Below, one piece after another: positions 59,366 to 63,180 of a stretch of DNA of 64,000 nt. The first letter of the stretch is position 1; each line of letters begins with the position of its first letter. Both the position numbers and the translations under genes were made by a program. The stretch lies in assembly GCF_056712565.1 (NCBI RefSeq), contig NZ_CM160072.1; one strand, 5' to 3'. The notes beneath the pieces were generated by a model, which saw nothing but the letters and a program-made list of their open reading frames with translations, was not told where the DNA came from and did not search any database.

Positions 59366-59905
59366 GATAAACCTGACCATTTTCCGCGACAATGCTGCCA
59401 TTTTTATTCTCTCCGTGAGTGACAATTGCACCGAATGGAACGCTTTTATTACCGTACTTCAACGTCATTAATACTTTCCCGCCGATTTGTGCATTAAATG
59501 TTGCTCTGGCAATAGCACCGTGAGTTGGGATGACAGTGACTACGGTTTCATCCAGTTCAACATTATCTGCAAGGGAATTCGCGTTAAGAGCGACACGATT
59601 TTCTCTATATTCTGTCGCAAATGGTAATATGGCATAGCCACGCCAGTCGGTATGAATTCCGGTCTGGTTCTCTATTTTGACATTATCAGCGCCAGGAGCC
59701 TTAACCAGAACCATTGTGTCGCCCAGCGGCTGTCCAAAGGTGATGCCATCAGCATGAGCAATAATCCCACCACTCATTCCGTAATAAATCTGGCTGCTGT
59801 CACCACTCCGACTGTAACCGACATTCGTATTACCGTAAGCACCACGATAATTAAGAGAACTGTAACCACTGGTGCCAGACGATGTATTACCCCCTTGGGT
59901 GTTAC
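59352..59905 (-). pseudogene. Fimbrial usher internal/C-terminal fragment, cut 5' by IS2 and 3' by a deletion
   Basis: Usher C-terminal-domain-like sequence ending …[14 protein letters not shown], where an intact usher would continue. Confidence 0.6.
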
Positions 59906-59916
59906 TGGATTTGCCC

Positions 59917-60822
59917 CTATATTTCCAGACACCTGTTATCACTTAACCCATTACTGGCTTGCTGCCGTAGATATTCCCGTGGCGAGCGATAACCCAGTGC
60001 ACTATGCGGATGCCATTCGTTATAATGCTCGAACGCCTCTGCAAGGTTCTTTGCTGCCGTTAACCCGTCTGGTTTGGGCATGACACTGATGTAGTCACGC
60101 TTTATCGTTTTCACGAAGCTCTCTGCTATGCCGTTACTCTCCGGACTCCGCACCGCCGTGCTCTTCGGTTCAAGCCCCAACATCCGGGCAAACTGCCGTG
60201 TTTCATTAGCCCGGTAGCATGAACCATTATCCGTCAGCCACTCTACTGGAGACGCCGGAAGCTCGTTGCCGAAGCGGCGTTCCACCGCTCCCAGCATGAC
60301 GTCCTGTACTGTTTCACTGTTGAAGCCGCCCGTAGTGACCGCCCAGTGCAGTGCCTCACGGTCACAGCAGTCCAGCGCGAACGTGACTCGCAGTTTTTCT
60401 CCGTTATCACAGCGGAACTCGAACCCGTCAGAGCACCATCGCTGATTACTTTCTTTCACAGCCACTCTGCCTGTATGTGCCCGTTTCGATGGCGGTACAG
60501 CAGGTTTTCGCTCAAGCAACAGCGCATTCTGGCGCATGATCCGGTAAACACGTTTGGCATTGATCGCAGGCATACCATCAAGTTCTGCCTGTCTGCGAAG
60601 CAGCGCCCATACCCGACGATAACCATACGTGGGCAGCTCTCCGATAACATGGTGTATACGGAGAAGCACATCCGTATCATCAGTGTGACGACTGCGGCGG
60701 CCATCCATCCAGTCATCGGTTCGTCTGAGAATGACGTGCAACTGCGCACGCGACACCCGGAGACAACGGCTGACTAAGCTTACTCCCCATCCCCGGGCAA
60801 TAAGGGCGCGTGCGCTATCCAC
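59917..60822 (-). CDS. insD: IS2 transposase OrfB (DDE integrase domain)
   Basis: 301-aa ORF inside the IS2 element. Confidence 0.85.
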
Positions 60823-61145
60823 TTTTTTGCCCGTCCATATTCAACGGCTTCTTTGAGGAGTTCATTTTCCATCGTTTTCTTGCCGAGCAGGCGCTGGAGT
60901 TCTTTAATCTGCTTCATGGCGGCAGCAAGTTCAGAGGCAGGAACAACCTGTTCTCCGGCGGCGACAGCAGTAAGACTTCCTTCCTGGTATTGCTTACGCC
61001 AGAGAAATAACTGGCTGGCTGCTACACCATGTTGCCGGGCAACGAGGGAGACCGTCATCCCTGGTTCAAAGCTCTGCTGAACAATTGCGATCTTTTCCTG
61101 TGTGGTACGCCGTCTGCGTTTCTCCGGTCCTAAGACATCAATCAT
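60780..61145 (-). CDS. insC: IS2 OrfA (helix-turn-helix DNA-binding protein)
   Basis: Track ORF 60780..61190 trimmed to [24 protein letters not shown]... to give 121 aa. Confidence 0.85.
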
Positions 61146-61236
61146 CTGCTCTCCAATGACTAGTCTAAAAACTAGTATTAAGACTATCACTTAAATAAGT
61201 GATATTGGTTGTCTGGAGATTCAGGGGGCCAGTCTA

Positions 61237-63180
61237 GTTACCGACCTGAACACTATAATTCAGGTTATTATCCGGTAGCAGAGTGCCATAAACCCCTGAT
61301 AGGTTGGTCATGCCGCCTTTCAAATCGTTTGACATACTGTAACTGGCGTTTGAATTATGAAATGCCGACTGACTGTCTGTACGCATCCAATGACTAAAGG
61401 GAACATTAAGCGTAAAAGCGAGTAAATGATCCCGATCGTTTTGCCATATATTATTGGAATAGCTGTAATTCAGCGAAGTCGTAATATCACCAAACGGCAC
61501 ATTTAATCCAAATGATATTTGCTGGTCGCTGCGTGACGTGTTCCAGTAACTTTGGCGACTGGCACTGAAAAATGTCGTACCATAATTTCCAAGCTGCTGA
61601 GAGATGCTTATTTGTTCCTGACCACGCTTACTGTAGAACAGATTAAAATAATCAATAAATAGTGTCTGCTCACTGGTGTCTCCGGTAGGAGGCTTGACGG
61701 TGTAACCACTCATTCGACTGTATGCACTGTCGGATAAGTTATAAAAACCTTGCGTAGAATAGCGATATCCTGCGACCTGGATATTGGTTCCCGTCTGGTA
61801 GAAGGATTTGCTGTAGACGGATTTAACCGATTGTCCGCTGTGACGGGTGTCATCTGCAAGTGTCGTATTGGCCTGCGTAATATCGAAAGAAAAGGCACCA
61901 AAAAGTCCTAAATCTTTACCAATACCAAGGTTGAAGGCCTGATAATCTTCTGCAATTTGCATTCCGCCATAAGGTGTCCAGTTTCCTTTCAGACCATGCA
62001 TCAAGCTTGCTTGTACGAACTTGGGGGTGCTTTGCAGGTTATTTCCACTACGATATTCCCCCATGGCAAGTGCATAACGCGTATATCCAGCACGTTGGAG
62101 AACCGGAACAGACGAATAAGGAACATATAATGTCTGAATACTGCCGTCTGCCTCTTTTATGGTTACTTGCAGATTACCACCATTGGCCGCAGAGTTGATA
62201 TCATCAATAGTAAAAGGGCCGGGTGGGACAGTAGTCTGATAAACATCGTATCCATTCTGTTTTACACTCACTTGTGCGGTGCCACGAGCAATACCATGAA
62301 TCACCGGAGCGAAACCATGTTGGCTATCGGGCAACATCGCTTCTGTTGAATTTATTTTAAGGCCACGAAAGTTCACACTGTCAAAAATATCGCCATCGGT
62401 ATAACTATCACCCACTGTTAACCGTGAGCGTAACGGAATAATGTCACGTTCAGCCGACGTATTGATATGCTGCCATTTATTGCTGTCAGATGAATTGCTA
62501 CTCCCACTGTTATAACTCCACGTTGAGTTATCGCGCAGTCGCCAACTACCAATGTTGATGCCACTCTGTAAATTCAAATATGCATAGTTGGATTTTCCTG
62601 CATTATGGTTACTACGGTTATTAATAGAATTACCATCAAAACTATAGTTTAGTAGCCCTGCATTTATTCCTTCTTCCCACAGATCAGGAGAAACATAGCC
62701 GCGAGCCATTCTGCCGACATATATTTGCGGAACGGAGAGTGACAGATGTTGCTGACCAACATCAAACTCAGATGATGCATCAGCCAAACGATCCTGAAGT
62801 GGTGTGCATGCGCTGTTGTCCGGCACATGTTTATCTGCCGAATGTTCCTTGTTGTCTAATAATGCTGATTTTTTTATGCCAAGACTGACAAGAAGGTCTG
62901 TACTCAGGCATGGGATGAGATCTGCGTTATTATCATCTGCAATAAAAGTAATATCCCGACTAGCCATAAATTCGTCGTTCAAATAAATGTCGACCCGATA
63001 TGTACCAGGTGGGGCCTCGCGTCCCTTAGTAAAGGCAGATAAATCGACAGATTCAGCAAGGTCATTGCTTAAAAACCGTGGATTAAAATAATACTCTGCG
63101 TCAACGGGAAAAACCGCAGTTGCTAAGCCAAGGGCAAAGGTAAGCCGTGCAAAGCGAGGCAGTATTAACACCTGATGCAT
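61237..63180 (-). pseudogene. Fimbrial usher (chaperone-usher pathway) N-terminal two-thirds, interrupted by IS2
   Basis: Track ORF 61234..63216 has a signal peptide and usher N-terminal region (…YFNPRFL…); its reading frame is terminated by a stop inside the IS2 end. Confidence 0.75.

Follow-up and report, generated by a model that had tools for sequence, protein, structure and literature searches.

Near one end of the 64,000-nucleotide stretch analyzed here (contig NZ_CM160072.1 of assembly GCF_056712565.1; hereafter "the window"), a gene coding for a fimbrial usher is interrupted by a copy of the insertion sequence (IS) IS2 and is fused at its 3' end to a fragment of ydeP (Table 1). In relatives, this gene is annotated as "fimbria/pilus outer membrane usher protein." Upstream of the usher the window encodes a PapD-type chaperone, whose counterpart is annotated in a fetched locus of a relative (L002) at 7823-8533, and downstream it contains the genes ydeN-ydeO-safA-ydeP'. 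The F9 operon is known to sit between ydeP on its 3' side and hipBA on its 5' side (PMC3966885). Because of these neighboring genes, the interrupted operon can be assigned to the F9/Fml (Yde) chaperone-usher fimbriae. In the collinear locus of strain APEC O1, the order is fimA-like subunit, chaperone, usher, ydeS, ydeR, ydeQ, and ydeP, with hipA lying beyond the point at which the window ends.

IS2 is located at nucleotides (nt) 1976-1980 of the usher gene, in the same orientation as the gene, and divides the Usher barrel profile at 417|418. When the element and one GTTAC were removed in silico, a single in-frame open reading frame (ORF) of 842 codons resulted. PapC_N, Usher, and PapC_C domains were all detected, yet not within one polypeptide, as the barrel is split and PapC_C is cut. 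An earlier interpretation made from this DNA alone (the sequence-only reading) had stated that IS2 splits the usher gene of a chaperone-usher system, which agrees with both the restored reading frame and the divided profile. Altogether, the F9 operon in the window is a remnant: the chaperone gene is intact, the usher is split and truncated, ydeS, ydeR, and ydeQ are deleted, and the major subunit lies past the window end.

Table 1. Features of the interrupted F9 usher locus (positions refer to the window).
Feature	Position	Strand	Basis or remark
Intact gene for the F9 periplasmic chaperone, on the upstream side of the usher	63258-63968	minus	Pfam PapD_N and PapD_C
Usher (F9/Fml, Yde), 5' part, codons 1 to ~660	61237-63216	minus	Pfam PapC_N and Usher profile 1-417 of 549
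Target site duplication, right copy (GTTAC)	61237-61241		sequence reading and script check
IS2 (IS3 family), full 1331-bp copy	59906-61236	minus	alignment to K-12 IS2A; left repeat at the 61236 end, right repeat at the 59906 end
Left terminal inverted repeat (IRL), 42 bp	61195-61236	minus	outer end TAGACTGG..., TA-3' terminus, donor-inactive end; exact terminus match
insC (orfA), 121 amino acids, helix-turn-helix DNA-binding protein	60780-61145	minus	Pfam HTH_Tnp_1, E = 1.8e-19
A6G slippery heptamer AAAAAAG, programmed -1 frameshift giving OrfAB	60822-60828	minus	element position 409
insD (orfB), 301 amino acids, integrase core with DDE-type catalytic domain	59917-60822	minus	Pfam rve, E = 4.8e-19; rve_3; HTH_21
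Right terminal inverted repeat (IRR), 41 bp	59906-59946	minus	outer end TGGATTTG..., CA-3' terminus, donor end; exact terminus match
Target site duplication, left copy (GTTAC)	59901-59905		sequence reading and script check
Usher, 3' part, between IS2 site and deletion junction	59364-59905	minus	Pfam Usher 418-549 and PapC_C 1-38 of 66
Junction of the 3,475-bp deletion, 3-bp microhomology, usher'-'ydeP fusion	59361-59363		alignment to the APEC O1 and NZ_AP038236.1 loci
ydeP 3' fragment, C-terminal ~435 amino acids, N-terminal ~323 codons deleted	58055-59363	minus	partial Pfam Molybdopterin and Molydop_binding

Identity and integrity of the IS2 copy

As a reference we used IS2A of Escherichia coli K-12 MG1655 (annotated as "insertion sequence:IS2A"; NC_000913.3 381260-382590). 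Read as its reverse complement, the window copy was identical to IS2A at 1301 of 1331 positions (97.7%), with 30 substitutions and no insertions or deletions. Two queries with the IS2 end sequences, TGGATTTGCCCCTATATTTCCAGACA and TAGACTGGCCCCCTGAATCTCCAGACAACC, each gave a single match in the window with 0 mismatches (59906-59931, plus strand, and 61207-61236, minus strand, respectively) and 0 matches in 100 shuffles. An inverted-repeat finder likewise paired imperfect inverted repeats at 59914-59945 and 61196-61227. Reading of the region 59700-61500, followed by a script, revealed that the two GTTAC copies are spaced by exactly 1331 bp; the probability of a 5-bp match at fixed element ends by chance is ~1/1024. 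A BLAST search of the element against the window returned only the self-match and no second or partial IS2 copy. Hence, the sequence features by which an element is placed in IS2 were all present: a length of ~1331 bp with at least 95% identity, terminal repeats, the two-ORF frameshift design, and a 5-bp duplication.

InsC was identical in amino acid sequence to K-12 InsC1, while InsD contained no internal stop and differed from K-12 InsD1 by 8 amino acids. A simulated -1 shift at the A6G heptamer yielded an unbroken OrfAB of 409 amino acids and 46.4 kDa, which matches the published 46-kDa OrfAB transposase of IS2 (PMC3299598). The two ends of IS2 are described as a 41-bp IRR, which terminates in CA-3' and is the donor end, and a 42-bp IRL, which terminates in TA-3' and is a donor-inactive recipient end (PMC3299598). 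Compared to K-12, IRR of the window copy carries one substitution, at position 27, and IRL is identical over positions 1-41 and substituted at the innermost position 42. Besides their length, InsC protein, A6G window, and 5-bp duplication, the window copy and IS2A have both terminal dinucleotides in common; the duplication itself reads ATTAC around IS2A and GTTAC around the window copy. The variant is named "IS3 family transposase" by PGAP, not "IS3-like element IS2 family transposase."

These results are in good agreement with the sequence-only reading, which had described a complete 1331-bp IS2 with intact repeats and intact insC and insD between two GTTAC copies. The first part was confirmed by the gap-free alignment to an IS2 reference, which had been suggested there as a check, together with the terminus matches and the Pfam hits, and the second part was confirmed by the script and by the single GTTAC of the empty site described below.

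At many other loci, copies 100% identical over 1331 bp were present; they came from at least 40 E. coli records, among which were plasmids as well as the Z0117EC0054 chromosome. IS2-like sequence was found in 4,898 of the 5,426 complete E. coli genomes that served as our comparison set throughout, at a median of 4 places per genome. Since identical copies are this widespread and IS2-like sequence occurs in most genomes, the element is a common IS2 isoform.

Empty site, usher-ydeP deletion, and probable order of events

Two genomes, APEC E18055 (O2:K1:H7; NZ_CP126940.1) and Z0117EC0054 (NZ_CP098206.1), contained no IS2 at this site. Both were 100% identical to the window over 54100-59905 and 61237-64000, i.e., over flanks of 5,806 and 2,764 bp, and in both the two flank alignments overlapped by exactly 5 nt, equivalent to a single GTTAC. 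This single GTTAC in the empty site is decisive evidence for insertion with target duplication. The relationship of APEC E18055 to the window extends further: across 4621-54620, 4 single-nucleotide polymorphisms (at window positions 6711, 20571, 37803, and 49638) and no gaps were found in 50 kb, showing the closeness of the strains. A reconstructed empty site (400 bp per side with one GTTAC) was covered to at least 80% in 5,057 of the 5,426 genomes and was matched with 100% identity by many phylogroup B2/ST95-type strains, among them APEC O1, IHE3034, and UM146.

In contrast to the empty site, neither the exact left nor the exact right IS2 junction was found in any of the 5,426 genomes by junction queries, and the nearest other IS2 insertion, in F2_407_2_2, is 8 bp away from the window site and in the same orientation. 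A set of 30 genomes that "covered" the whole 5.3-kb query was considered as sharing the insertion and rejected, since their IS2 appears to be located in ydeR/ydeS and not in the usher. With empty sites in near-identical relatives and the junction absent from the comparison set, the insertion is simple, recent, and strain specific. Its origin as a composite transposon or by rearrangement was rejected because the window contains no further IS2 and its flanking sequence runs collinear with that of the empty site. Simple transposition, as proposed in the sequence-only reading, was thereby borne out, and the comparison with related strains recommended in it did reveal the expected empty site.

The second lesion of the usher is a deletion. 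After removal of the IS, the window aligned to the APEC O1 locus (L023) in two blocks, 17-2380 (100% identity) and 5856-9159 (1 mismatch), which overlap by 3 nt; mapping against the NZ_AP038236.1 locus (L001) agreed. With these 3,475 bp, the usher loses its final 44 codons (132 nt) and ydeP its initial 971 nt, and ydeS, ydeR, and ydeQ, the last of which codes for the adhesin, are gone altogether. As a result, the PapC_C profile match breaks off at position 38 of 66, and the acid resistance gene ydeP is inactivated as well. The deletion junction is located 540 bp from the IS2 end, on the downstream side. A 601-bp junction query was matched in one piece and with 100% identity in only 2 of the 5,426 genomes, which were again APEC E18055 and Z0117EC0054. 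Both are IS2-free at the site, and PGAP calls both gene fragments pseudogenes there. That the deletion was caused by this copy of IS2 was rejected, given the 540-bp distance, the microhomology of only 3 bp, and the presence of the junction in IS2-free genomes.

Since the identical deletion occurs in IS2-free relatives and any other order would call for precise excision on two occasions or for the same deletion to have arisen twice, parsimony indicates that the deletion very probably preceded IS2. The insertion would then be a second hit, in a pseudogene, and was probably neutral with respect to phenotype, because the operon had by then lost its adhesin, both minor pilins, and the last usher codons, and ydeP its 5' part. 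The sequence-only reading had attributed inactivation of this fimbrial operon to the insertion. Such a causal role is unsupported, as the deletion shared with the IS2-free relatives is very probably the earlier event.

The following history would account for these observations. The host would have been a B2/ST95-like E. coli strain with a close relationship to APEC E18055; its F9 locus would already have lost 44 C-terminal usher codons, the tip adhesin, the two minor pilins, and 5' ydeP to the earlier 3,475-bp deletion. A single IS2 would have entered the remaining F9 usher by the copy-out/paste-in route of the IS3 family. For IS2, a two-step transposition has been described, in which OrfAB first cuts IRR, the donor end, and links it beside IRL, so that a figure-of-eight and then a minicircle is formed, which attacks the target and generates direct repeats (PMC3299598). 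Following this scheme, the IRR end would have been cleaved and joined beside IRL, the figure-of-eight would have been converted into a minicircle, and its abutted ends would have been cut, with a staggered attack on target positions 5 bp apart giving rise to the GTTAC duplication. The window copy has the termini, the frameshift site, and the 5-bp repeat expected of this route. As it keeps both inverted repeats, orfA, orfB, and the A6G site, the inserted element could move again. That it is still active, as suggested in the sequence-only reading on the basis of the intact transposase genes, is plausible and receives indirect support: OrfAB can be made, identical copies occupy many loci and plasmids, and the insertion is absent from near-identical relatives.

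We consider it very likely that a recent IS2 insertion hit an F9 usher that had previously been ruined by the 3,475-bp deletion. No observation speaks against the structure of the insertion, although some parts of this account are less secure. The order of deletion and insertion is deduced by parsimony from only two relatives, current activity of the element is judged from indirect evidence, and the variant is substituted relative to K-12 at IRR position 27 and IRL position 42; the occurrence of identical copies at many loci argues that these terminal substitutions are tolerated.

With the opposite order, IS2 would have inactivated a functional F9 operon, and the deletion between ydeP and the usher would have come later. 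IS2 does interrupt the barrel domain of the usher, and in several other genomes, e.g., JNEC-KY173, EC332, ETEC1748, and N44, an IS2 in the usher is the only visible lesion. However, the same junction (100% over 601 bp in a single alignment) is present in two IS2-free genomes whose remaining sequence at the locus matches the window at 100%, so that either precise excision in both relatives or an independent recurrence of the same 3,475-bp deletion would be required, and we regard this order as very improbable. If, alternatively, the two relatives had themselves lost IS2 by precise excision, the insertion would be older than it appears. Excision of IS3-family elements is known, for instance that of IS629, which is promoted by IEE (10.1101/2023.06.07.543989), but a perfect single GTTAC would have to be restored in both relatives, and the filled site was found in 0 of the 5,426 genomes, which leaves such losses a very slim chance. 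IS copies are also a classic source of misassembly, and the IS2 at this locus might be a misplaced repeat. Against such an artifact stand the clean junctions, the exact length of 1331 bp, and a perfect 5-bp duplication of a sequence that occurs as a single copy in the empty site; a target site duplication is not produced by a misplaced repeat, and an assembly error at this position seems extremely unlikely. Deletion followed by IS2 insertion therefore remains the history that we favor.

IS2 insertions in the F9 usher and other fimbrial loci

A direct precedent is provided by K-12 MG1655, whose fimbrial usher pseudogene yqiG is split by IS2I (L021 4097-5427; NC_000913.3 3186096-3187426). As in the window, IS2 splits an usher there, and a 5-nt annotation gap corresponds to the duplication. 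IS2I differs from the window copy in its fimbrial operon, which is yqi, and in its position close to the 5' end of the usher. F9 operons have been reported to be often disrupted in E. coli (Wurpel et al. 2014, PMC3966885). The operon in the window is the one described there and is likewise flanked by ydeP; it differs in the combination of the usher-ydeP deletion with IS2 at nt 1976-1980, which was found in 0 of the 5,426 genomes, whereas the deletion alone was found in 2.

IS elements close to the site were counted with 500-bp chimeric queries (250 bp of flank joined to 250 bp of IS end), scoring genomes with an IS not more than 750 bp from the site; these counts are genomes and not independent events, and ratios derived from them are rough. 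In the same orientation as in the window, IS2 was detected on the usher flank of 14 genomes at the right side and 9 genomes at the left side, and in the opposite orientation in 27 genomes at the right side, which amounts to ~50 genomes and many distinct sites. As controls, the IRR end of IS2 was joined to a ydeN flank and to a dosP flank, both of which gave 0 genomes. IS1 ends were detected on the usher flank of 19 genomes in one orientation and of 8 in the other. IS1 ends are ~3.6 times as frequent as IS2 ends (~72,000 versus ~19,600 places, with ~5,200 usher matches subtracted). Under uniform insertion, ~3 genomes with IS2 and ~11 with IS1 would be expected, compared to the observed 41 and 27 (both orientations, right side), resulting in a ~5- to 6-fold excess of IS2 over IS1 per copy in the usher. 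The usher thus accumulates IS elements generally, which fits a decaying operon, with an additional excess of IS2.

In 14 of 15 further loci that were fetched, IS2 was complete (1331 bp) and bordered by a perfect 5-bp duplication. These 14 copies and the window copy occupy 14 distinct positions between nt 1565 and 2559 of the usher, 12 of which fall within nt 1795-2089. The other insertions occur in both orientations and in different lineages, and none of them is at nt 1976-1980; PF9285 and SCU-172 have the same AAATG target with IS2 in opposite orientations. No target consensus was apparent among the 15 duplications in the usher (GTTAC, CCGTG, CCCTG, GAGTG, TTTGA, AACAT, AAATG [twice], ATAAT, GGCTG, CCACT, GCCCC, CCGCC, CCCCC, and GCGAG), and base composition near the site was unremarkable (GC content of 43-49%). 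A sequence within the usher that resembles an IS2 end and might act as an attractor was rejected, as the best matches to the two ends in the IS-free window reached only 24/42 and 24/41 and none of them was inside the usher.

The 3' half of the usher might be a regional hot target preferred by IS2, similar to the hot target known for IS2 in phage P1, beyond the relaxed selection expected in a decaying operon, although we put this forward tentatively and rather doubt it. If it is such a target, the window insertion would be one of dozens of independent hits. Lewis et al. (PMC3299598), the one paper that a literature search on IS2 hot targets yielded, cite nonrandom regional targeting by IS2 (hemB and the hot target in phage P1), for which a connection with DNA curvature has been proposed. 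Both regional preference of IS2 and decay of the F9 operon are already part of the literature.

IS2 was also observed at other positions of the F9 locus. About 30 genomes, with near-constant spacing and record spans of ~8,770 bp, appear to carry IS2 in the minor-subunit region ydeR/ydeS, which was confirmed by annotation only in NZ_AP038236.1 (L001 5423-6651); this might be explained by a single insertion passed on by descent or by a second hot site. In E. coli CE10 (L017, NC_017646.1; 2630-3642), the fifteenth of the fetched loci, and also in IAI39 and N32, the usher contains a truncated IS2 that adjoins a hipA fragment, which suggests that the 5' part of the F9 operon was lost in the CE10 lineage by an IS2-adjacent deletion.

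Elsewhere in the window, positions were mapped from the annotation of a near-identical relative (L006). At ~40811-40975 (L006 13646-13810), the relative has upstream of dosP only a 165-nt remnant of a gene with a diguanylate cyclase domain, corresponding to its C-terminal end. We believe that this position is that of dosC, which appears to have been largely deleted in the lineage. Three annotated items of the relative map to ~9920-15610 (L006 39011-44701): yncG with a frameshift, a small island for type VI secretion coding for a PAAR protein, VgrG, and an M35 peptidase, and a 144-nt remnant of an ISAs1-family transposase gene.

Consequences for annotation and for IS2 biology

The insertion is real but ordinary, an instance of already known biology, and its importance beyond correct annotation is slight. 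An annotation of the locus should list the element as IS2 and both the usher and ydeP as pseudogene fragments. That F9 fimbriae and ydeP were lost in this lineage should be attributed to the 3.5-kb deletion and not to IS2. The insertion itself provides a useful strain-specific marker with respect to APEC E18055 and Z0117EC0054, and it indicates that IS2 has recently been mobile in the clade of these two strains. Target choice by IS2 could be studied with the repeated insertions in the F9 usher as a naturally occurring data set.

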